Both the position numbers and the translations under genes were made by a program. This document shows positions 33,413 through 57,085 of a stretch of 64,000 nt of DNA, one piece after another; within the stretch, counting starts at the first letter, position 1; each line of letters opens with the position of its first letter. The stretch lies in the IMG/VR virus record IMGVR_UViG_3300021121_000001, positions 1-64,000 of that record, one strand, 5' to 3'. This stretch comes from a virus. Taxonomy: Duplodnaviria > Caudoviricetes. Under the pieces are notes generated by a model that saw nothing but the letters and a program-made list of their open reading frames with translations, had not been told where the DNA came from and made no database searches.

Positions 33413-34160
33413 TTCTTGTATTTTGTAAATCTCTTTGGTTTGTTTTATCTGAAGGACTTGTGTTCATATTAGGATATTGATCCTCTGTAAGGGATACATA
33501 TATCTTGGTAAGTCTATTAAGTAATTCTTTTTTTACATCATTCAAAAGATAAAAAGGAGCTACAATTTCATAATCCAATGGAGATTTACACAAATCTATG
33601 TCTTTACAGTCATAGCAATCTGATGTTCTTTTAAACAACTCCACTTCATGCTTATCTATAAAATATGCCTCCATTCTAACTTGTTCAATAGCCAGATCTA
33701 CATTTTTAGGTATAGGTATATACAAATAACCATCAATAAAAAAATAATAATACTTATTCCTATCCTTATACTGTCTCTTCTGTATACTAACCCATTGCCT
33801 GGGTGTAACAGGATCGAAAGAATAAGAAAAATTAGGAGAAGATACATGTTTGATTATATTTCCAAAACTATAAGTGTAAGTGGCAGGAAGTCTTTTTACA
33901 GATCTCATCATTCTGTCACATATTCTAACATCTACATCAGGACAGGAAATTGTTGGAACTTCTTCTAATTCAATGCCTTGTATTTCAGTCCAGCCTTCAG
34001 CAAGTCTTTGCAATTTCCTTTTTGCATCCTGATCTTTCTTTAAAAAATCTGCTACAATATTTATGGTTTCATAATACACAAATCTTGGAGGAATATAGCT
34101 ATCTGCTGAGATTTGCTTTATCTCTGTTTGTATATCATTAACAAATTGTCTGTAAGTCAT
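33402..34160 (-). CDS. Tail ring protein (probable start 34160, MTYRQFV)
   Basis: The track start (34220) lies inside a terminator hairpin. RSVKRLP and YYFFIDGYLY motifs; synteny. Confidence 0.6.
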   Translation of the reverse strand: MTYRQFVNDIQTEIKQISADSYIPPRFVYYETINIVADFLKKDQDAKRKLQRLAEGWTEIQGIELEEVPTISCPDVDVRICDRMMRSVKRLPATYTYSFGNIIKHVSSPNFSYSFDPVTPRQWVSIQKRQYKDRNKYYYFFIDGYLYIPIPKNVDLAIEQVRMEAYFIDKHEVELFKRTSDCYDCKDIDLCKSPLDYEIVAPFYLLNDVKKELLNRLTKIYVSLTEDQYPNMNTSPSDKTNQRDLQNTRNGQ

Positions 34161-34244: not shown

Positions 34245-35594
34245 TTATTTCTTTACAATATAATTAAATTCTGCTATCTGTCCTTCTTCTTTATGGAATA
34301 TAATAGCATTTGCCATTCTCTTAGCTCCATAATAATTGTTTTCATTATGCCATGCATCCATTACAGAAAGAGAATTCAATCTTCTTAAAACAACTCCTCC
34401 CACTTCATTTTCTGTTAAAAACACCTTTTTAGAGGTTTTATGAAGATGTCCAAGATAGATGTATCTGTATAGAGAACTTGAGAAATAGTCTGGTTTTTCC
34501 ACTGCAAATGTCAAAGGAAGACCATCATCTTTACAATCTCCATGAGTAAGCATATAACTTGTTACACCATATTTGTGGTATTTTCTAATATGGGGATCAT
34601 TAACTATTTCTACGTCTTTATCTTTTCTATAAAATGCTTTAAGAGATTCTCCAAGGTAGAAAGAAGTGGCTTTATCGTGATTACCCTGCACTATGAATAA
34701 TTTAACTTTAACTCCTTTAAAAGAAGATAGGTAATCTACAGCTTCTGTAAGAATTTCCAATCCTCTCATGTAAATTTTCTGATACCTTGTATCAACATCA
34801 TTCATAATAGTTCCATTGGCTGTCTGATTGTTGGATCCATTTGTATGAAGAAAATCACCTCCTATATTAAGAATAAATTCCTCTACTGAAAAACATCTTG
34901 TAGCTTGTATTGCAAGATTTTTAAGAGAATTCATAAAAACCTCTTTTGCAATATCTACATTGAAATCTGCTCCAACTTCTTTATCCCATGCTAGTTTTCC
35001 TACATGCAGATCAGACAAGTTCAAGAGGACAGAAGTGGTTTTTGGCTCATTTGAAGTTGGAATTGGAGAAGCCGGAGAGCTTAAAAGTTTAAGTTGATAT
35101 GTATCTATAAATTCCTTAAATAGTTTTTGATAATCAACTGCGTGTTCTGGTTTTATAGAAAGAAGAGAAACAGTTATTGCATATTTACCGGAAAAAGAAG
35201 TTTTATGGTAGATTTGATTAATTCTATACTTCTTTGTATCTATTTTGAAATGTTCTATTATTTCTTGATCTGTAGGAATATCATCTGCTGTAAATGTAAA
35301 TTCTTTTGTTCCCTGTTCTTTATTCTCATTTCCAGAAATATAAGAAAATGCTCCTTTTATAGTGGAATCTATATTATTTTTAATTGTGGTGAAAATACCT
35401 GATTTTTCTTTTCTTTTTCTAAGTTTAGAAAATCTACTTCTAACATATTCAGAATCAAGTGTTTCAATCTGTGCATTTTTAGAAATAATATCTTTTGTTA
35501 CTTCTTGCCAGGAAAACCCAGAGGTTTCTCTTTTTGCTTGTATTTTATCAAAGTTTTCTTTCAGATATGAATCTACAAGTTTTATTTTTTCCAT
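34245..35594 (-). CDS. Calcineurin-like metallophosphoesterase
   Basis: All five motifs present: SDLHVG, GGDFLH, GNHD, THGD, GHLH. Confidence 0.9.
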   Translation of the reverse strand: MEKIKLVDSYLKENFDKIQAKRETSGFSWQEVTKDIISKNAQIETLDSEYVRSRFSKLRKRKEKSGIFTTIKNNIDSTIKGAFSYISGNENKEQGTKEFTFTADDIPTDQEIIEHFKIDTKKYRINQIYHKTSFSGKYAITVSLLSIKPEHAVDYQKLFKEFIDTYQLKLLSSPASPIPTSNEPKTTSVLLNLSDLHVGKLAWDKEVGADFNVDIAKEVFMNSLKNLAIQATRCFSVEEFILNIGGDFLHTNGSNNQTANGTIMNDVDTRYQKIYMRGLEILTEAVDYLSSFKGVKVKLFIVQGNHDKATSFYLGESLKAFYRKDKDVEIVNDPHIRKYHKYGVTSYMLTHGDCKDDGLPLTFAVEKPDYFSSSLYRYIYLGHLHKTSKKVFLTENEVGGVVLRRLNSLSVMDAWHNENNYYGAKRMANAIIFHKEEGQIAEFNYIVKK

Positions 35595-36062: not shown

Positions 36063-36077
36063 AAAATTACTTAATTA

Positions 36078-36085
36078 CAAACTTA
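36078..36085 (-). promoter_or_regulatory. Bacteroidota -7 element (TAAGTTTG) upstream of the DUF559 gene
   Basis: TAnnTTTG 15 nt before the ATG. Confidence 0.55.
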
Positions 36086-36152
36086 ATGCTTATATTTGTG
36101 TATTCATAATTCATCAAAGTAGATAATTAAAATAATTATTTTTACTTATAGA

Positions 36153-36184
36153 TTTGGAAATATGATTAATGTTTTGTAAGTTTG
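36153..36184 (+). promoter_or_regulatory. Consensus Bacteroidota primary-sigma promoter on the + strand (TTTG-N20-TAAGTTTG)
   Basis: -33 TTTG at 36153-36156, -7 TAAGTTTG at 36177-36184, 20-nt spacer; points away from all coding genes. Confidence 0.8.
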
Positions 36185-36189
36185 TATTA

Positions 36190-36334
36190 TAGTAATTACT
36201 TGTTTGCCGAAACAAATAGTAACACTAGAAAACTGATATATTCAAATTATTATAAATTTTCTAGTTCTCTCACTGGTTTCGGACTTTGAGGGAACTTTGA
36301 ACCTGCCCCAAGTACATACTACTTGGGGTTTTTT
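36190..36334 (+). ncRNA. Putative structured small RNA (~145 nt)
   Basis: Promoter upstream. Hairpins at 36196-36222, 36224-36265 (actagaaaa/ttttctagt) and 36264-36295 (gttctctca/tgagggaac, G-U valid on +). Intrinsic terminator at the end; no ORF. Confidence 0.65.
36305..36334 (+). terminator. Rho-independent terminator of the + strand sRNA
   Basis: gccccaagta/tacttggggt stem followed by a U-tract. Confidence 0.85.
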
Positions 36335-36573
36335 ATTCCCCGCCTGGAAGCAGTGTTAATTTTTTGATTAATTACAAAATAGGTTTGAAATAGCACCTTA
36401 AAGGTTACTCCTGTATATAGCCTAAAGCTTTTGAAATTTTTCCAAATGAATAAACGCCACCACTTTAGATCTCTATGAACAGTATGTCCAAATTTGTCTC
36501 AAAAGAGGTAGACTCTCTAAAATAAAAATTTCCTGGGGTGGCGATTTCTTCAATTTTTTGATGGAGGTAAAAC

Positions 36574-36613
36574 TATAAAACCCCCTAATTAATAAAAATC
36601 AGGAGGTTTTATA
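36574..36613 (-). terminator. Hairpin / probable terminator after the basic-protein genes
   Basis: tataaaaccccct...aggaggttttata; the single mismatch is a G-U pair on the minus strand. Confidence 0.6.
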
Positions 36614-36629
36614 AGTTCTTGAGAATAGA

Positions 36630-36944
36630 TTAGCTATTCGCTCCTTTCTTTTTTCCTTGTACAGCACCATATGCTCTTATTCCTCCCACTCTTTTTGCAG
36701 GAGTTCCTGTAGCACCACCAGTCTTATACTTTTTCATTGCTTTCTTTTTGCCACCAAACTTAGCCATCATTTGAGCTGTTTGAGATCCTTCAGGACCTGG
36801 AGGAGGACCTTGTTGAGCCATTGGAGGCATAGGAGGAGCCATTGGAGGAGCCATTGGAGCTTTCCTAGCAGGAGCAGATTTCTTCATCATCTTTTTAGGA
36901 GCTGATTTTTTTGCTGCTGATTTTTTCATCATTTTCTTTTTCAT
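36630..36944 (-). CDS. Lys/Met/Pro-rich basic low-complexity protein (histone H1-like composition)
   Basis: KKMMKKSA repeats, MAPP repeats, AKFGG and YKTGG motifs. Confidence 0.7.
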   Translation of the reverse strand: MKKKMMKKSAAKKSAPKKMMKKSAPARKAPMAPPMAPPMPPMAQQGPPPGPEGSQTAQMMAKFGGKKKAMKKYKTGGATGTPAKRVGGIRAYGAVQGKKKGANS

Positions 36945-37081
36945 TTCTTTGTTTTTTTCTTTGTTACTAATTTTTTTGTTTTACTTGTTGACGTTTCTTT
37001 AGATGCAAATTTTTCACCGAGCTTAAAAGCTTTCTTTGCTTTTGCAGCAGGTGTGAGTCTTTTTTTTATTACTTTTTTCAT
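36941..37081 (-). CDS. Unannotated 46-aa highly basic micro-protein (MKKVIKKRLTPAAKAKKAFKLGEKFASKETSTSKTKKLVTKKKTKK)
   Basis: Its TGA overlaps the ATG of the 104-aa gene (ATGA coupling); fills the gap after the 37118-37153 terminator. Confidence 0.7.
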   Translation of the reverse strand: MKKVIKKRLTPAAKAKKAFKLGEKFASKETSTSKTKKLVTKKKTKK

Positions 37082-37117
37082 TTTGAATAATTAAATATAA
37101 GGAATTTTTTAAAAATT

Positions 37118-37153
37118 AAAAAAATCCCCTGATGTATTTCTACATTCAGGGGA
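37118..37153 (-). terminator. Rho-independent terminator preceded by a pyrimidine-rich anti-TIR segment
   Basis: tcccctga-tgta/taca-t-tcagggga stem with a U7 tract on the minus strand. Confidence 0.85.
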
Positions 37154-37188
37154 CAAACCAAATATAGAGAGAAAAGAACAATATTTTG

Positions 37189-37491
37189 TTACTTCTTGAT
37201 AATTGGAGATTGTACTTCTGTTACCAAATCAGATAACTTAGAAGAGTCAAGATCACTAACCGGAATAGTGAATGAAGAGCCTACATCTGCTGTTTTGTAA
37301 ATAGCATTTCCGCCTTCATCTATTGTAATAATAAAGAAGTTTTCCTGAGCCACGTTTGTGGGTCTCTTAGATTTTACGTCATCTATTACAGTCTGTAATT
37401 TAGTTAGTGAAGTATTCTGCTTGCTTGCTCTTTTATCAGGGGTGTTTGCTATTGTCAAATCCCATGAAGTGATTATTATTTTGAATGCCAT
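37189..37491 (-). CDS. Hypothetical protein (100 aa)
   Basis: Co-oriented ORF directly after the spike gene. Confidence 0.6.
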   Translation of the reverse strand: MAFKIIITSWDLTIANTPDKRASKQNTSLTKLQTVIDDVKSKRPTNVAQENFFIITIDEGGNAIYKTADVGSSFTIPVSDLDSSKLSDLVTEVQSPIIKK

Positions 37492-41629: not shown

Positions 41630-41664
41630 TAAAACTCTGACCTCCTCCATATTTCAGGAGGAGG
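41630..41664 (-). terminator. GC-rich hairpin / probable terminator after the fibre gene, preceded by an anti-TIR segment
   Basis: cctcctcc/ggaggagg 8-bp stem; U-tract slightly offset. Confidence 0.6.
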
Positions 41665-41708
41665 CTATGAGAAAGGAGCTAAACCAAAAAAAGCTGCTTT
41701 TTTGTATC

Positions 41709-45988: not shown

Positions 45989-46511
45989 TTAACAAATCAA
46001 GAATTTTGTCAGCAGCTTTATAAAGTTTGCCTGCCTCCTTCACATTACAAGAAGCAGCATTTACTTTAACGCCATAGATATACACTCTTGCTCTTTCAAG
46101 TTTTTCTAATTTTTCAGGAGAAAAACAAGCTTCACAAGGCTGTACATTAAGTTTCAAAAAAGCTTTGTCATATTTGCACTCCAGCAGGCAGGTTCTATAC
46201 CAGGTTTTCTCAAACCAGTATTGCTCTTCAGGACATATACTTATTTTAGCAGTGTATAGTCCATCAGGAAGAGTTGTAAGTAGATCAAGATCAAGAACAT
46301 TTGTAATACCAAGAGTATTACTATTTAGAATTGTAACAGCATTTTTGTAGAAATTTAGCTGTACAGGAGTGTTATCAAAAGGAGTGATCACTTGCAAACT
46401 TGCATTTGCAACAGTTTGACTTGAACTGTAAAACGAAGTGTCATATAGTCCTAATGTTTTACAGTTATTTGTGTCAAGTATATCAAAAGATAATTTAGTA
46501 CTTTGAATCAT
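45957..46511 (-). CDS. Putative tail hub protein (Ig-like plus helical)
   Basis: LPDGLY motif, Cys-containing helical C-terminus, and position after the auxiliary capsid gene as in crAss-like phages. Confidence 0.55.
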   Translation of the reverse strand: MIQSTKLSFDILDTNNCKTLGLYDTSFYSSSQTVANASLQVITPFDNTPVQLNFYKNAVTILNSNTLGITNVLDLDLLTTLPDGLYTAKISICPEEQYWFEKTWYRTCLLECKYDKAFLKLNVQPCEACFSPEKLEKLERARVYIYGVKVNAASCNVKEAGKLYKAADKILDLLIECDCHEHRY

Positions 46512-46621
46512 TTCTTTTTTCTCTCTATTACAATTTTAAATCTTTTTGTTCTGCATTTAGGACATTTTCCTCCTATGCACTCACACCCACAACCCACGAC
46601 ATGACCACATGAACATCTCAT
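46508..46621 (-). CDS. Unannotated 37-aa Cys-rich micro-protein (MRCSCGHVVGCGCECIGGKCPKCRTKRFKIVIERKKK)
   Basis: ATG at 46621 preceded by aaaccaaata; its TGA overlaps the next ATG (ATGA); 7 Cys in the first 23 residues. Confidence 0.75.
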   Translation of the reverse strand: MRCSCGHVVGCGCECIGGKCPKCRTKRFKIVIERKKK

Positions 46622-46658
46622 AACTAATTGATTTTATTTGGTTTATAAATATCATAAA

Positions 46659-47539: not shown

Positions 47540-47569
47540 TTTATTTAATGTATTTAATTTAATTAAAAT

Positions 47570-47611
47570 AAAAAAGGAGGTGAGGTTTTAAGTACCCTCA
47601 ACCTCCTTTTT
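47570..47611. terminator. Bidirectional intrinsic terminator after the auxiliary capsid gene
   Basis: aaaaaggaggt-gagg...cctc-a-acctccttttt. Confidence 0.85.
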
Positions 47612-47633
47612 GGGTTAATATTTAGTAAGAATA

Positions 47634-50291: not shown

Positions 50292-51263
50292 TTAACCTAT
50301 TGCGTTGTGTTTTTTCTTTCTGTTTTCAACTTCACTTCTCAACTCACCAAGCTCAATTTCCATTCCTGCTGCCAGGAGATACAATATGCTATCTTGTTTA
50401 GTCTTTTTGTAATTCACATGACCTCTATGATAGTATCCATCTGAGCTAACCCTGATCACTCCCATATTTATTCCTTGTTGGAACATATTGTGTATTGCCA
50501 ATGTAGCATTGTCAAGTTCACAAGCCTCAAGGAATTCTGTCATAGTTTTACCTGTCTTGTCATTAAAGATTGCTTCCTGCATCCTCATTTCAAGTACTTC
50601 ACTATCAACTTTTTGTTTGCTAACAAGACCAAGTTTGAAGGCAACTTCCCAAGCTCTTTGTTTGTTTTTACTTTCGTCAAACAATTTAGACATTTCAATA
50701 TTAGCCTTGCGACTTTTCTGAATTTTAGATTTGTTAAATTCAGTAGTTTCTTCAGAGGTTGTAAGATAGAATTTAGAATTTCTATACTCCGGTTTACTAA
50801 TGTCAGCTTTACTTTTAGGGAAATTTGGATTGTTCATTATAAGAGCTAAAGAAATAGCATCTCTATAATTCTCAGCAGGACGAAGTTCATTGCCATGACC
50901 ATTCACCCTTATTTTCATATCTGCACCAACTTCTATTTCCACCATGCAGATTTCACTCAGCCATGCTTCAGATGTAGGTTTCAGATAATCAGGAACTCCT
51001 ATAAGAGATTCAAGTTCCTTTCTTTTTTCAATTATTCTTTCTTGAGCTTCTTTTTTCTTTTCAGAAGGAAGTCTTAGAACGTCAGGAGCATTTTCATCAA
51101 ATCCTGTCCTGTCATATTTTTTAAGTCTATCATTCCAAGAAGCAGAGATAGCTTGAGTGATACCTGGAAATGTACCTAGCCCTTTTCTTGCTAGTTCTTC
51201 ACTATCTCTGCTTGGAATTGCTTCTATGCGATAGACTTTTGAGAAATCTATAAAATCTGTCAT
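50292..51263 (-). CDS. Conserved crAss-like capsid-module protein downstream of MCP
   Basis: Synteny; Y.RTG.DENAP motif. Confidence 0.55.
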   Translation of the reverse strand: MTDFIDFSKVYRIEAIPSRDSEELARKGLGTFPGITQAISASWNDRLKKYDRTGFDENAPDVLRLPSEKKKEAQERIIEKRKELESLIGVPDYLKPTSEAWLSEICMVEIEVGADMKIRVNGHGNELRPAENYRDAISLALIMNNPNFPKSKADISKPEYRNSKFYLTTSEETTEFNKSKIQKSRKANIEMSKLFDESKNKQRAWEVAFKLGLVSKQKVDSEVLEMRMQEAIFNDKTGKTMTEFLEACELDNATLAIHNMFQQGINMGVIRVSSDGYYHRGHVNYKKTKQDSILYLLAAGMEIELGELRSEVENRKKKHNAIG

Positions 51264-51304
51264 TTTTATTTGGTTTATTTGGTTTATTGTTCTTTGGAGG
51301 CAGA

Positions 51305-52966
51305 TTACTGCAATTGCAGCAATACTGACCTACCTGGGTCTCTCAGCCATATACTAGACTGTTCTTCAAGGAAAGCTGTATATCCATCAAACAAAGATGA
51401 AGCAACAGAACCTTTACCGGCAGCAAGAGGATATGGACTAGTTCTACCATTGATATAAGTGTATTTGACACCTGGCATACCTTGGTTTTTAACCAGATAG
51501 ATATTTGCTTTGTTATCAAAACCTGTAGCAAATTCTACACCTTTAGAAGGCTCATATGCATTGGTAGAAGTAGTTTCTGTAACATCCATGATCATGGAAG
51601 TGTAAGAGAACTTAGGCAAACCACCAATTCTTTCCTCATCCATTGTTCTGTTAAATTCAGAATCAAGAGCAGGGTTGTGTTCAAATGAAAGATGACCAAA
51701 ACCTGAAAGGAATACTTTGTTAAATCTGTAACCTGCTTCCAGATTGTAAGCATCTGAACCTTTTATAATACCCAAAGATGAGTTATCAAGTACAGTACCT
51801 ATTGCATTGCTTATTGCAACACCTGCTTCAGTACAGATTCTTGTAAGTTCAATCATTGCACCTCTACCACACTGGAAATGAAGGTGACGATCAACATCAG
51901 CTATATCAGGACGATTTTTAAATATTTGAGAGAATACACCTTTGATTATATCAAGAGAGTATTTAGGGATTGTAAGCCAGTTACCATTTTTCATTTGCTG
52001 ATACAGACCTTGAGCAACTACTTTATAGTTATTTCTTTGATCTTGCAGAACACCACCCTGACCATACATCAGTTGTCTTTCAGTATCAAGCATGAGTTGT
52101 TTGTAAAGCAACACTTCAATCATTGGTACAAATGATACAGGTTTGCTTTTATCAACTTTACCTTGACCATTATTATAACCAATTGCCACCATGAATTCTG
52201 GACTCTTAGGATCAAGATAAGGAGCAACACTTGCAGCAAACTGATTTGGATTACCCATACCAGAAATATTATCAAGTTTCAGACGTTGAGCAGAACCATG
52301 AACTGTCATCTTAACAGCTCTCTTGCTACCAATTTTATGGAGGAGTTTGATAAAGCCTGCTGACTGGTTAATACCTGGAGCTTCTTCATCATATTTACCA
52401 ATAGTGGAACCTACACTAAACAATTGAGTGCCTGGTTTCAGCCATTTCTTGTCTACATATTCATTTCTGTCATTTGTAACAAGTTTCAACTTGTAAACAA
52501 AACCATCTGCAATTCTTTGCTCAACAGAAATAACTACAAAATTTTGACCATCACGAAGATCAGCAGTGATAAGCTGATTGAGACCAAAAATAGGATCAAG
52601 ATTACCATCACCAATTAGGAGTTCAAATACTTGACCATCAATACCTGGTTTTGAATTGTCACCAGTGAGATCTTCTCTGATGGTTGGCATTTCCAAAGTA
52701 TAAGGTACATCAAATGTGAATTCGCCATCATCACCATTTACATAAAGGGTGTTTTTAGCAAGTTCTGTCATTTTCAACAGGGGAGTGTTAACCAGTTGAA
52801 ACTGATTAAAAAGAGTGAGGATACCCAAGTGTTGTCTGTTAACACCTTCTCCACCTGCAAGCAAGTTCATTAGCTTATTTTCATCAGCAAAGTTACCTGC
52901 CATCCTATAGTCCATTTTTTCAAGGACTATGTTATTACCAAAATTTTTAAATGTTCCTAATGCCAT
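51305..52966 (-). CDS. Major capsid protein (553 aa)
   Basis: Follows portal and acidic scaffold; GLYQQ, H.PALD and C-terminal DGY......SIWLRDP.RS..L motifs of the crAss-like MCP. Confidence 0.85.
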   Translation of the reverse strand: MALGTFKNFGNNIVLEKMDYRMAGNFADENKLMNLLAGGEGVNRQHLGILTLFNQFQLVNTPLLKMTELAKNTLYVNGDDGEFTFDVPYTLEMPTIREDLTGDNSKPGIDGQVFELLIGDGNLDPIFGLNQLITADLRDGQNFVVISVEQRIADGFVYKLKLVTNDRNEYVDKKWLKPGTQLFSVGSTIGKYDEEAPGINQSAGFIKLLHKIGSKRAVKMTVHGSAQRLKLDNISGMGNPNQFAASVAPYLDPKSPEFMVAIGYNNGQGKVDKSKPVSFVPMIEVLLYKQLMLDTERQLMYGQGGVLQDQRNNYKVVAQGLYQQMKNGNWLTIPKYSLDIIKGVFSQIFKNRPDIADVDRHLHFQCGRGAMIELTRICTEAGVAISNAIGTVLDNSSLGIIKGSDAYNLEAGYRFNKVFLSGFGHLSFEHNPALDSEFNRTMDEERIGGLPKFSYTSMIMDVTETTSTNAYEPSKGVEFATGFDNKANIYLVKNQGMPGVKYTYINGRTSPYPLAAGKGSVASSLFDGYTAFLEEQSSIWLRDPGRSVLLQLQ

Positions 52967-52986: not shown

Positions 52987-54132
52987 TTATTTAAATTTAA
53001 ATCCTTGAGGAGCACCTGTTTGTTTACGCTTTTCAGGTTCTTTGGATACTACTCCAGAAAGAGGATTACCGCCTTCTTTTAGAAAATTAAATTGCTTTTT
53101 TGTAGCTTCTGCTTCTGCAATCTTTTTATCTTCGTAAGCATCCATGTTCTTGATGAACTTCAGGAACTTCTGATATTTTTTAGGATCTTGGTTGATTTCA
53201 TTCATCCTCACCATGAATTCAGAATATTTATTTCCTTGATTGTCTTGAAATTTATAATCGTATATAAATTTATCAAGTTCTTTTTTTTCTCTTTCAGCAA
53301 GATTGGGATCTTTATAAATATTTTCCCTAACTGCTTTATTAAAAGCCTCTGCTCTTATTTTTCTATCTTGAGCAATTGCTTCTTGCTCTTTTATCATCTC
53401 TTCTCTTTCAGATTCTATAGCTGAAACCAATTTTGATTTACAGTCTTCAGCTTCTTCTTTAAAATCAGAATCACCGGAATCTTTAAGTCTTTCTATATGT
53501 CTTTTGATCTTTGCATCGCTCCAATCAATAGATTTGTAATATTCTTTTATGGCTCTTTCCTGACCATATTCATCAGAAGTATCAAGAGAGGAAACTTCTA
53601 ATTGTTGTGTATAATTACCAACAAAATCATCTACTGTACCTCCTGCTTTTAGAAAATCTACAAGTTGATTTGCAGTATCTGGAAATTGTGATCTTTCTTC
53701 AAAAATAATTTCTTTTGCTGAATTTTCTGCTTGTGCCTTCCAAAGAGCTTGAAATGTCTCTTCAGAATAGTCTATGTCCTCCCTTCCTTCAAAATCTTTC
53801 CAAACTTCTGTCTCTACAAGAAAATCTGCAAAAGCCTTATAGTCAACCTTATCAGCACTTAGCTTTTCAGGTTCTTCTTCTTTTTCTTTTTCAGATTTTT
53901 TATTGTTTTTATTAAAAAAACCAAGAGGGTCATGAGCATCATCTTTATCATCCTCTTCTTCAGTTTCTTCAATAACTACATCTTTAGGTTTTTCACCTTC
54001 ATCTGTAGCTACTGGTTTAGCTTTTTCTTTATCTTCTGAATTGGGCTGAATTGCTCCAGGGAATTGTTCAGGGTTAATTTGAATACCCTCATCTTCTCCG
54101 AAGTAGAAGGGTTCTACGTTAACTTTTGACAT
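52987..54132 (-). CDS. Acidic scaffold-like protein
   Basis: Very acidic disordered N-terminus and coiled coil; between portal and MCP. Confidence 0.7.
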   Translation of the reverse strand: MSKVNVEPFYFGEDEGIQINPEQFPGAIQPNSEDKEKAKPVATDEGEKPKDVVIEETEEEDDKDDAHDPLGFFNKNNKKSEKEKEEEPEKLSADKVDYKAFADFLVETEVWKDFEGREDIDYSEETFQALWKAQAENSAKEIIFEERSQFPDTANQLVDFLKAGGTVDDFVGNYTQQLEVSSLDTSDEYGQERAIKEYYKSIDWSDAKIKRHIERLKDSGDSDFKEEAEDCKSKLVSAIESEREEMIKEQEAIAQDRKIRAEAFNKAVRENIYKDPNLAEREKKELDKFIYDYKFQDNQGNKYSEFMVRMNEINQDPKKYQKFLKFIKNMDAYEDKKIAEAEATKKQFNFLKEGGNPLSGVVSKEPEKRKQTGAPQGFKFK

Positions 54133-54185
54133 ATACTATATTTGGTTTGTAATACAATTATACAAAAAATTATACAATTTAACAA

Positions 54186-54241: not shown

Positions 54242-57085
54242 TTATTTTTTAAGATTTGGTTTAATTTTTATTTTTTGTTTTTCAAGCTGAATTTTCTTAT
54301 CTGCAAGTTTTTCATCTCTTTTTGCTTTTTCAGCAGAAAGCTTTTCTTGAGACTTATTCTGAGCCTGGATCTGTTCAAGTTTTTTATTTTCAATAGCCAG
54401 CTTATTCTTCATTTCTTTTTCTTTCAGTGCGGCATCCTGTTTCTTAAGCTCATGTTCTGCCTGGAATTTATTCTTTTCAAGTTCATGCTTTCTATGATTA
54501 TTCAATTGATCTGCAAGAAGGGACTGCTGTGCAATTGCTGCCCTTGAATTCATATCTTCTTTTTTAATATCAATTTCTGTTTGTTTTATAAGTTGACCTG
54601 TAGTGTTTTCATCAGGATTGTAAGACCCTTCAGCAGCAATTCCTTTAAGTTTTTCCAGATTGAGTTTGTTATCTCTGTCAAGTTGGTTTTGTTCAGCCTG
54701 AAATTGTCTTTGCTTATCAGCTTCCTGTGCAGCAGCCTGCGTTTGCTGTTGTTGCATTTGCTGCTGCTGTTGCTGCTCTTCTTGTTTTTGTTTTTGCTGT
54801 TGTTTTTCCTGATCTTCCAATTTCTTCTGTATATCTATAAGGCTATCAAGTCTTATTGTTTCTATCAGTTTAGACATAGGCATCATAGACTGGTTATTTT
54901 TAAGAAGCAATTGCTCCACCATTTCTTTCCTTCTAACCTGTTCAGCAGAATTAGTTAAATACACTCCAAAATTTCTTAGGAGTAAATCATCAGATGCTAT
55001 TTTGATAAATGCCTGTCCAAGATCTGAAGTTGTATATTGTTTTACAATATCTCCCTTTCCTTTTGATTCTACATATTGGGAAAGTTCCAAAAGCATTTGA
55101 AGTTTCCTTCTTCTGTAATTTGAAAACTGTTCAAAATATATTTCTGTAATAGCATATGAGTTGTTTATAGCTGCTTGAGTTGTCCCAACTTCAGCAGACT
55201 GCATTACATTTCCTTGTCTTTGTGGAGATATTCCAAGCTGCATAAACCCTTGTTGTTCAACAAGCATTGCAAGATTTATAAGTCTTTGTATCCTGTCAGA
55301 TTCATCCATATCCATCACCTTCAAACCATATTGCATGGATTGAGATTGGGCAGAAGTAGAATCATCTACAACAGCAAGACCAAGATTACTTGCAATTGTC
55401 ATAAATTTCTCCTGTGCTTCCTCTCCTCCCCAATCTTTAATATTAGGAAGAAGAGAGGCACCCATAATAAAAAACTTACCATTGTTCTTTTGAGCAACAT
55501 GATATGCCTGATTATAGAAAGCATTTACAAGTACTTGATATGGCTTAAGGAGATCCACTACAGATTGACTTCTTCCATTTCTATTATTGAAAATACTTCC
55601 TATAACGGGAAGTTTACAATCAAATATGAATCTTGGGTCATTTCCCCTGAATTGAAATTCCATAGGGCGAATATCTATATAGATGGCATTCCTATCTTCA
55701 GAAGTTTGCATCTTTTGATAGTTGACATTTATCTTTATCCCTTGCCAAACTTCTGTTATCCAAGTCCAAGTAATTGTATTTGGTTCATCTGCATCTTTAA
55801 AAGATTCCTTTAAGACTTCAACACCAAATATCTTTGGATCAAAGAATTCATCAACTATTTTAGTTATAATTTCCCCAGTTTCAGGATTTTGCAAATTCAC
55901 TTTTCCAATCTTTCTTTGGGATTTCCAATAAGCTTGAGTAACTTGTACAATGTCTGCCTGAGTGAATATATAATTTGTTCCATCTGTTCCAGGATAAAAC
56001 CCAAACTGAGGAATACCATAAGGAGATGCAGATATATTGCTTTCTCCTACAGCCTGTCCAACCCCTGTAACCAATGTATCATATTCCCTGTAGTCACCAA
56101 AAGGATATAAAGTTGCATTGAATGCTTCTTTATATACTGAACCCTGAGATTCTCCTTTTTGATATTCTGGGTAGAGGGCTTCTATTTGATCCCTTGTCAT
56201 TCTCCATCCAAAATAATCTAAAATTTCTGTTTTAGACATATATAAGATCCTTCCACAATATGCAAGATCTTCTACATTTTTATTTTGCGTATTATATTGG
56301 TAGAATACAGTGAGAGGATTCCAGGTTTCAATAGCATACCCGGAATTGGTTAAATAAACATGTGAGAATGATCTATCCACCACACACATGTCATAAAATT
56401 CATTTATGTCTTGTTCTTTTACTCTAAATCTTTCCAGGTCATCAGAAAGAGTGGCTTGTCCCCAATGTTCAGCAGCACTTCTGAAATCATATGTAAGGTA
56501 TTTTTCTATTGATTGAGGTGTCAGTTCCTGATACTTTTCCTCTATTGCTTTTTTATAATCAGCTTCTTCCTGCTGATCTTTAAAATCATGTTTATTAACA
56601 TCAATGCCTTGACTGGCAAGTTTTTTTGTAATTTCCTGATTTATATTTTCTTTAAGATATGACCATACAAGGTCAGATTTAATTCTTAGTTTCTCATTTG
56701 ATGTTTCTGTATCTTTTGCAACAACTCTTACAAGATCAGGTCTTTTTATGAATTCTCCTACGAGAAGTTTTACAGCTTTTGTTGTTACATCGTAATGTTT
56801 CAGGAAAGAGGGGAGTTTCATTTCCTGATATATCATAGTGGAAAGATCATATGCGTCAAAACTATCAATATAGTCTTCCACATTGAATCTTCCTTGCATT
56901 ATTTCATAATTCTTTCTTAGTTCTATATTGTTATAAAATGAATATCTTCCTACAGATTCAAGAGCATCCATGCTGTCTTTCATCCATTTGGTATATCCAT
57001 TTTTATCTTTTTCCTTTTTAAATTTAACGTCATAACTAACTTGCTGGGAAGGAAGAGAGCTATTTACCGGGCGATTATATAACAT
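54242..57085 (-). CDS. Portal protein (947 aa) with poly-Q coiled-coil C-terminus
   Basis: Follows TerL; LPSQ, KHYD...LLVGE..KRP, S.VDLLKPYQ..N and GISPQRQG motifs. Confidence 0.9.
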   Translation of the reverse strand: MLYNRPVNSSLPSQQVSYDVKFKKEKDKNGYTKWMKDSMDALESVGRYSFYNNIELRKNYEIMQGRFNVEDYIDSFDAYDLSTMIYQEMKLPSFLKHYDVTTKAVKLLVGEFIKRPDLVRVVAKDTETSNEKLRIKSDLVWSYLKENINQEITKKLASQGIDVNKHDFKDQQEEADYKKAIEEKYQELTPQSIEKYLTYDFRSAAEHWGQATLSDDLERFRVKEQDINEFYDMCVVDRSFSHVYLTNSGYAIETWNPLTVFYQYNTQNKNVEDLAYCGRILYMSKTEILDYFGWRMTRDQIEALYPEYQKGESQGSVYKEAFNATLYPFGDYREYDTLVTGVGQAVGESNISASPYGIPQFGFYPGTDGTNYIFTQADIVQVTQAYWKSQRKIGKVNLQNPETGEIITKIVDEFFDPKIFGVEVLKESFKDADEPNTITWTWITEVWQGIKINVNYQKMQTSEDRNAIYIDIRPMEFQFRGNDPRFIFDCKLPVIGSIFNNRNGRSQSVVDLLKPYQVLVNAFYNQAYHVAQKNNGKFFIMGASLLPNIKDWGGEEAQEKFMTIASNLGLAVVDDSTSAQSQSMQYGLKVMDMDESDRIQRLINLAMLVEQQGFMQLGISPQRQGNVMQSAEVGTTQAAINNSYAITEIYFEQFSNYRRRKLQMLLELSQYVESKGKGDIVKQYTTSDLGQAFIKIASDDLLLRNFGVYLTNSAEQVRRKEMVEQLLLKNNQSMMPMSKLIETIRLDSLIDIQKKLEDQEKQQQKQKQEEQQQQQQMQQQQTQAAAQEADKQRQFQAEQNQLDRDNKLNLEKLKGIAAEGSYNPDENTTGQLIKQTEIDIKKEDMNSRAAIAQQSLLADQLNNHRKHELEKNKFQAEHELKKQDAALKEKEMKNKLAIENKKLEQIQAQNKSQEKLSAEKAKRDEKLADKKIQLEKQKIKIKPNLKK

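Follow-up and report, generated by a model that had tools for sequence, protein, structure and literature searches.

Near its 3' end, a minus-strand late transcript of this phage carries a short stretch complementary to the leader of a distant structural gene. The question is whether this complementarity is due to chance or to selection, and at what level it would act. We analyzed a window of 64,000 nucleotides (bases 1-64000) from a virus record of 115,327 bp that has direct terminal repeats. The window has a G+C content of 28-37%, with nearly all of its genes on the minus strand, and represents the late (virion) arm of the 115-kb genome of a crAss-like phage. It encodes a capsid protein of the Crass_capsid family (51305-52966), a portal (54242-57085), and, between these two genes, a 381-aa scaffold-like protein (minus strand, ATG at 54132). 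The nearest isolated phages are very distant, with 22-33% identity in the capsid protein. Neither a blastn search against a phage collection nor single-protein searches of viral contigs with the 100-aa and 794-aa proteins found related DNA or relatives, respectively, and a scan with a loose DNA pattern that combined the box and the hairpin described below returned unrelated phages. A tail-protein profile scan returned mainly distant domain matches but gave the relative G003. The most widely conserved marker of the region is a 449-aa minus-strand protein (34245-35594) with the GDxxH, GNHD, and HGD motifs of the calcineurin-like phosphoesterase pattern, for which we found 180 relatives in viral contigs.

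The complementary stretch lies in the 36-nt 3' untranslated region (UTR) of a 100-aa minus-strand gene (37189-37491, stop codon at 37189-37191). This UTR leads into an intrinsic terminator, T2 (37118-37152, minus strand), and the RNA reads ...UUCUUUUCUCUCUAUAUUUGGUUUGU, followed by a hairpin from 37152 to 37126 and then a U-run. The 27-nt hairpin is G+C rich and is followed on the transcribed strand by an A and seven U's, as expected for an intrinsic terminator, with a predicted fold of -23.3 kcal/mol (z = -3.8). The last 15 nt of the UTR form a U/G-rich box (UG box, CUAUAUUUGGUUUGU, 37153-37167, minus strand), one base 5' of the hairpin. The remainder of the UTR (37168-37188) holds a tract rich in C and U, GUUCUUUUCUCUCU, together with the 3' arm of a weak hairpin upstream. 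Both the minimum-energy and the centroid folds leave the UG box single stranded. The arrangement resembles that of a 3'-UTR-derived small RNA (sRNA), in that a single intrinsic terminator serves both the upstream coding gene and the box, which offers a conserved, predicted-unpaired seed adjoining that terminator. A search of Rfam gave no family at the gathering threshold, the sole match being a chance one to NsiR1, which scored 19.5 bits where 39 were required (E = 0.78). On the opposite strand, we considered an antisense small open reading frame (ORF) or a plus-strand leader at 37153-37190, but this stretch holds only a 16-codon TTG frame, which is not conserved. The box also bears no resemblance to GUAGGAUA, the known motif of RbpB (bioRxiv 10.1101/2021.04.27.441718).

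Beyond T2, a promoter-like stretch (37082-37117, minus strand, with TATATTTA at 37099-37092) may serve the genes for a 46-aa and a 104-aa protein (36630-37081, minus strand). Both proteins are very basic, low in complexity, and rich in Lys, Ala, and Pro, and their genes form a unit of their own between T2 and the next terminator (36573-36614). In relatives, a 43-aa Lys-rich protein is encoded directly before T2 in place of this pair.

Read on the plus strand, 37153-37167 (ACAAACCAAATATAG) has one further exact copy in the window, located at 54136-54150 of the opposite strand. The positions and sequences given in an earlier note on this DNA hold: the UG box is complementary, over all 15 nt, to an A/C-rich box (AC box, ACAAACCAAAUAUAG, 54136-54150, minus strand) that ends 3 nt before the ATG of the scaffold-like gene. 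We judged an invertible segment between the two inverted 15-mers implausible because the motif is present in multiple copies. The leader core, AAACCAAA, is the Watson-Crick complement of the terminator-box core, UUUGGUUU, and AC boxes precede four late genes in all. Besides the scaffold-like gene, these are a 323-aa gene, with two tandem boxes (AAACCAAAUAAACCAAAUA, 51267-51285, minus strand); a 37-aa Cys-rich ORF (box at 46635-46644, minus strand); and a 211-aa gene, with a box (ACAAACCAAA, 33434-33443, minus strand) 21-30 nt before its ATG. The copies of AAACCAAATA previously reported before the ATGs at 51263 (two copies) and 46621 are present, and the box at 33434-33443 is an addition to that set.

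A further 12-nt match, between 37164-37175 and the 12-mer AUAGAGAGAAAA (46517-46528, minus strand), had been placed in intergenic DNA upstream of the hub gene. The match itself is there, 5 nt before the hub-gene ATG at 46511, but it is at chance level and is not conserved in L018. Its intergenic placement was mistaken, as the 12-mer lies inside the 37-aa Cys-rich ORF (46508-46621), the stop of which overlaps the hub-gene ATG. This ORF (minus strand, CxC...CGC.C...CPKC) ends in a TGA that overlaps the start of a 184-aa gene, and both L018 and G003 have a counterpart in the same place, likewise small, Cys rich, and preceded by a leader with an AC box.

Promoters of this phage resemble the Bacteroidota type, with TTTG at -33 and TAnnTTTG at -7. 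Upstream of the scaffold leader, we predicted such a promoter, with both elements at the 18-21-nt spacing: TTTG(54186-54183)-N20-TATAATTG(54162-54155), with one mismatch in the -7 box. It is conserved in L002, L017, and G003, and the G003 orthologue is a perfect TTTG-N20-TATATTTG. The scaffold AC box starts about where this conserved promoter should begin transcription and, by this predicted start, probably lies at the transcript's 5' end or close to it.

Taken by itself, this genome offers no more complementarity than chance gives between a T-rich UTR and A-rich leaders. The motifs are of low complexity, with CC in A-runs and GG in T-runs. The earlier note had put a chance origin of the 15-nt match at a few percent and had suggested a shuffle test restricted to intergenic DNA. 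For the intergenic DNA of the window (2.1 kb), the estimate stands, as 4.3% of shuffles gave an inverted exact match of at least 15 nt between intergenic regions (P = 0.043). It fails for all intergenic DNA of the 115-kb genome (8.1 kb), where the proportion was 42% (P = 0.42). Ranked by duplex energy, the scaffold leader comes first among 132 leaders (-18.7 kcal/mol), but 32% of shuffled seeds reach an equal energy somewhere (P = 0.32). Five leaders have complements of at least 10 nt, a count matched by 15% of shuffles (P = 0.15); this number of targets is not significant because any T-rich UTR complements A-rich leaders.

A second UG box, also not in the earlier note, occurs in the 3' UTR of a 524-aa gene (UUUUUUUGGUUUAG, 41679-41692, minus strand). 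It precedes terminator T1, a hairpin of CCUCCUCC and GGAGGAGG (41641-41664, minus strand) with a U-rich tail, which has the form of an intrinsic terminator and carries two compensatory pairs relative to L018. The other terminators of this phage lack a UG box, including T0 (47.6 kb), the first terminator after the scaffold operon. The stems of the late terminators at 41641-41664 and 47540-47633 (minus strand) have arms of the CCUCC/GGAGG type (CCUCCUCC/GGAGGAGG and AAGGAGGUUGAGGG...), so these terminators carry Shine-Dalgarno-like and anti-Shine-Dalgarno-like strings, though the leaders lack them.

Outside the window, the 14-mer CAAACCAAATATAG has a third copy (genome positions 111897-111910, minus strand) beside a bidirectional terminator. 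This copy is not decisive on its own, since 26 different 14-mers reach at least three copies in the genome. It lies at the end of a stand-alone 94-aa gene (genome 111863-112232, in L195) that has a perfect TTTG-N19-TATATTTG promoter, received no family assignment, and ends in CAAACCAAATATAG directly before the terminator. On the strand opposite the gene end, CTTTTCTATATTTGGTTTG equals 37153-37175 (minus strand) save for a 4-nt CTCT insertion. At bidirectional terminators, the orientation is the reverse of that at T1 and T2: the late strand carries the AC box ahead of the hairpin, as at genome 111897-111910 and at L194:7100 and 7925.

Two other sets of noncoding sequence drew our attention. A 567-nt gene-free gap in the window (36063-36629) contains a canonical plus-strand promoter, TTTG-N20-TAAGTTTG, at 36153-36184, and a stretch of it (...GAGAACTAGAAAATTTATAATAA...) is conserved in G003 (L064:15426-15810), which suggests that the gap holds a conserved noncoding RNA. 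Three intergenic regions elsewhere in the genome (92500-92723, 97218-97522, and 100760-101044) have in common a long, near-identical, structured-looking sequence (...TTGGGCAATCAGCAGC...GGTTCAACGACTA...) and look like copies of a repeated intron-like or mobile RNA element.

We then compared the boxes among relatives. A box of the UUUGGUUU type lies 5' of the orthologous T2 and T1 in every relative that retains those terminators. The boundary orthologous to T2 falls between the tail genes and the block ending in the phosphoesterase gene, and in six relatives a TTTGGTT core is found a few bases 5' of the hairpin. The T2 boxes read AATTTGGTTTGGTTTGGTT in L018, ACATTTGGTTTTG in L019, TTTTGGTTTGATTTG in L020 and L021, TTTTGGTTTGGTTTAG in L022, and TTTATTTGGTTAC in L024. 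The box is thus a conserved island, since neither the flanking UTR nor the hairpin sequence nor the upstream gene is the same among them. The T1 box is conserved in three lineages: this phage, L018 (TTTTGGTTTGGTT), and G003 (GTGTTGGTTT). On the leader side, AC boxes occur 1-30 nt before the ATGs of the same four orthologous genes in every lineage in which these are visible: before the 323-aa gene in L018, G001, G003, G006, and G007; before the Cys-rich ORF in L018 and G003; and before the 211-aa gene in L019 and L022.

The system is dispensable in L023, which has lost T2 and its box and kept the downstream promoter, and is absent from the L003 clade, which has neither T1 nor T2. L023:3500-3560 and L022:2650-2740 are otherwise near identical and differ by the entire T2 cassette, box and hairpin together. 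Contigs L003-L014 keep the 100-aa gene (80% identity) and are uninformative on covariation because the intergenic region and terminator are missing there; the near-identical contig L015 offers no variation.

Across 80 crAss-like loci, the two motifs are enriched in their respective places. Of 89 terminator-like hairpins, 12 have TTGGTT in the 30 nt on their 5' side, compared to 30 of 1,480 coding windows (P = 1.4e-6), and AACCAA occurs in 75 of 1,460 leader windows, compared to 13 of 1,480 coding windows (P = 2e-12). AACTAA and AATCAA are likewise enriched in leaders, making AACCAA one of several words with pyrimidines in an A-run. AAGGAA shows no enrichment in these leaders, which fits initiation without a Shine-Dalgarno sequence.

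The terminator and leader boxes change together. This phage pairs leader AAACCAAAT(A) with terminator TATTTGGTTT, and L018 pairs leader AAACCAAACCAAAT with ATTTGGTTTGGTTTGG at T2 and TTTTGGTTTGGTT at T1. G003 has AAACCAACAAC in its leaders (scaffold, 320-aa [twice], Cys-rich, and 237-aa) and GATGTTGGTTTTT and GGTGTTGGTTT before T2 and T1, respectively. The leader and terminator sequences are AAACCAACAAAC and TTTTGTTGGTTTTT in G006, AAAACCAAAAAA and TTTTTTGGTTTT in G007, and AACAACCAA and TTGGTTGTT in G008. In G003 and G006, the motif has switched on both sides, with CCAACA in the leaders and TGTTGG before T1/T2, a concerted change from CCAAAT in the leaders and from ATTTGG at both terminators.

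To quantify this covariation, we matched the 26 nt before each T2-type hairpin against the leaders of the scaffold-like and 323-aa-like genes in seven lineages, three of which had been chosen for TTGGTT before the terminator and not for the fit to their own leaders. The longest perfect complements within a lineage were 15, 14, 13, 11, 12, 9, and 8 nt. Among all 5,040 assignments of boxes to lineages, 0.04% reached the total of the true one (P = 0.0004), and by duplex energy the true assignment was the single best (P = 0.0002). Controls gave no such preference: same-sense matching (P = 0.94), flanking segments 34-60 nt (P = 0.37) and 74-100 nt (P = 0.27) upstream and 45-71 nt (P = 0.49) and 80-106 nt (P = 0.22) downstream, and 100 random sets of upstream windows (median P = 0.49). 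The fit is uneven, as in three of the seven lineages a sister lineage's leaders fit slightly better than the lineage's own, and the L021 box fits its one available leader poorly. In L018, the pairing with the scaffold leader relies on G-U pairs, growing from 14 to 17 nt when these are allowed. The same own-versus-cross comparison restricted to leaders near the phosphoesterase gene, in 80 loci, gave no signal. The compensatory changes in related phages that the earlier note had asked for are thus present across seven lineages, and target complementarity maintained by covariation, with negative controls, is again a feature of 3'-UTR-derived sRNAs. That the two boxes are coupled we regard as well supported and highly probable. 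The interpretation offered earlier needed this comparison, since the statistics of the single genome were insufficient; with it, the complementarity between the 3' UTR and late-gene translation initiation regions appears to be under selection.

What couples the boxes could be RNA, DNA, or neither. Were they independent, the AC box would be a translational enhancer of Bacteroidota leaders that lack a Shine-Dalgarno sequence, the UG box would be a terminator-associated RNA element (for antitermination, processing, or protein binding), and the 15-nt match would be a coincidence aided by base composition. The weak single-genome statistics fit such independence, as does the leader enrichment of AACTAA and AATCAA alongside AACCAA. 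In many crAss-like loci, TTGGTT is found before terminators irrespective of what the leaders nearby look like, and the local own-versus-cross result is flat. RNase E prefers RN|WUU, with which the GGUUU of the box agrees. Independence nevertheless leaves unexplained both the joint replacement of CCAAAT by CCAACA in leaders and of ATTTGG by TGTTGG at the two terminators and the own-lineage preference with clean controls, and we find it rather unlikely. Alternatively, the boxes could be one double-stranded DNA motif (AAACCAAAT/ATTTGGTTT) bound in either orientation by a phage or host protein at late promoters or leaders and at terminators, where a change in specificity would move all sites. Reverse-complement covariation is predicted equally by such a site; the box covers the point at which the scaffold promoter is predicted to start transcription, and the motif has the opposite orientation at bidirectional terminators. 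A DNA site fits poorly, however, with leader copies that lie 1-30 nt from ATGs even in promoterless operons, such as in the 41-nt gap between the capsid and 323-aa genes. Orientation on the transcribed strand is constant in all lineages, strictly A/C sense at all leaders and U/G sense at T1 and T2. The copies differ in length and in how often they repeat (5-nt and 9-nt tandem forms), as a fixed protein site would not, and the L018 scaffold leader keeps its pairing only through G-U. We therefore consider a DNA-binding site improbable.

Less probable still, by a wide margin of our confidence, is that TATATTTG within the UG box (37166-37159, minus strand) is a Bacteroidota -7 box, with a start inside the T2 hairpin giving an RNA that escapes termination. 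The match to TAnnTTTG is perfect, but no TTTG lies 18-21 nt upstream, the TA is not kept in the boxes of relatives, and the relatives have a separate canonical promoter, TTTG-N19-TATATTTG, downstream of T2.

RNA-RNA pairing is, in our view, the best explanation, because the location of each box makes sense only at the RNA level: the AC boxes in ribosome footprints, including those within operons, and the UG boxes in the unpaired stretch directly before a protective 3' hairpin. We lean, with modest confidence, toward a terminator-protected 3' RNA segment that pairs with late-gene leaders. Counting against this reading are the low complexity of the motifs, the three lineages that fit a sister's leaders slightly better, the poor fit in L021, the loss of T2 in L023 and of both terminators in the L003 clade, and the reversed orientation at bidirectional terminators. 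The 3' ends of late transcripts at T1 and T2, protected by their hairpins, would exist as processed fragments or remain attached to the mRNA, and their U/G boxes would anneal to unstructured AC-box leaders that lack a Shine-Dalgarno sequence. On the scaffold-like gene, pairing would cover -4 to -18 and would limit or time binding of the 30S subunit. Because pairing over this region should hinder 30S binding, repression or timing of the scaffold-like and neighboring proteins is predicted, the sign of the effect being our inference. Action between molecules is favored over end-to-end pairing of one mRNA because no box precedes T0 and some of the target leaders lie within operons. We infer all three elements, the RNA-level pairing, the action between molecules, and the translational repression, from the positions and covariation of the boxes.

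Several known systems resemble parts of this arrangement. In enterobacterial 3'-UTR sRNAs of the CpxQ, SroC, and DapZ type, an unpaired seed likewise lies directly 5' of the intrinsic terminator of the parent mRNA, is more conserved than its flanks, and targets translation initiation regions. Those sRNAs are proven stable species that depend on Hfq and RNase E, whereas the phage RNA is a candidate and the presumed host phylum lacks Hfq. The phage box differs further in that a single phage operon system has it at two terminators, with the phage's own late genes as its targets. GibS and the FopS family of Bacteroides are trans-acting sRNAs that pair with unstructured, A-rich initiation regions lacking a Shine-Dalgarno sequence. 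They share with the phage box the use of such Bacteroidota leaders as partners, but they are host encoded, are mostly independent transcription units, and have no sequence relation to it. Phages and prophages also encode regulatory RNAs, among them lambda OOP, P22 sar, DicF, and AgvB/AsxR, which act on translation or stability by antisense or seed pairing. They are, however, cis-antisense or host targeting, and none is a multicopy, terminator-proximal box set against a shared motif of virion-gene leaders. T4 RegA offers a parallel in that one factor acts on a loosely conserved leader motif common to several phage genes; RegA is a protein, whereas the candidate factor here is RNA, deduced from complementarity. 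Our literature searches found no comparable regulatory RNA for crAss-like phages.

The crAss-like phages rank with the most abundant viruses of Bacteroidota, bacteria that start translation without Shine-Dalgarno pairing and lack the classical RNA chaperones, and to our knowledge nothing is known of post-transcriptional control in these phages. More tentatively than for this phage itself, we suggest that there could be a family-wide RNA code, in which anti-leader boxes at the 3' ends of late transcripts would anneal to virion-gene leaders, completed late transcription would feed back on translation of early-assembly proteins, and boxes and leaders would coevolve within each lineage. Its signature, TTGGTT before terminators and AACCAA in leaders, can be searched for over thousands of uncultured genomes. 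If the pairing is real, it would be the first candidate RNA-RNA regulatory circuit in crAss-like phages and would provide a compact model for the regulation of A-rich leaders.
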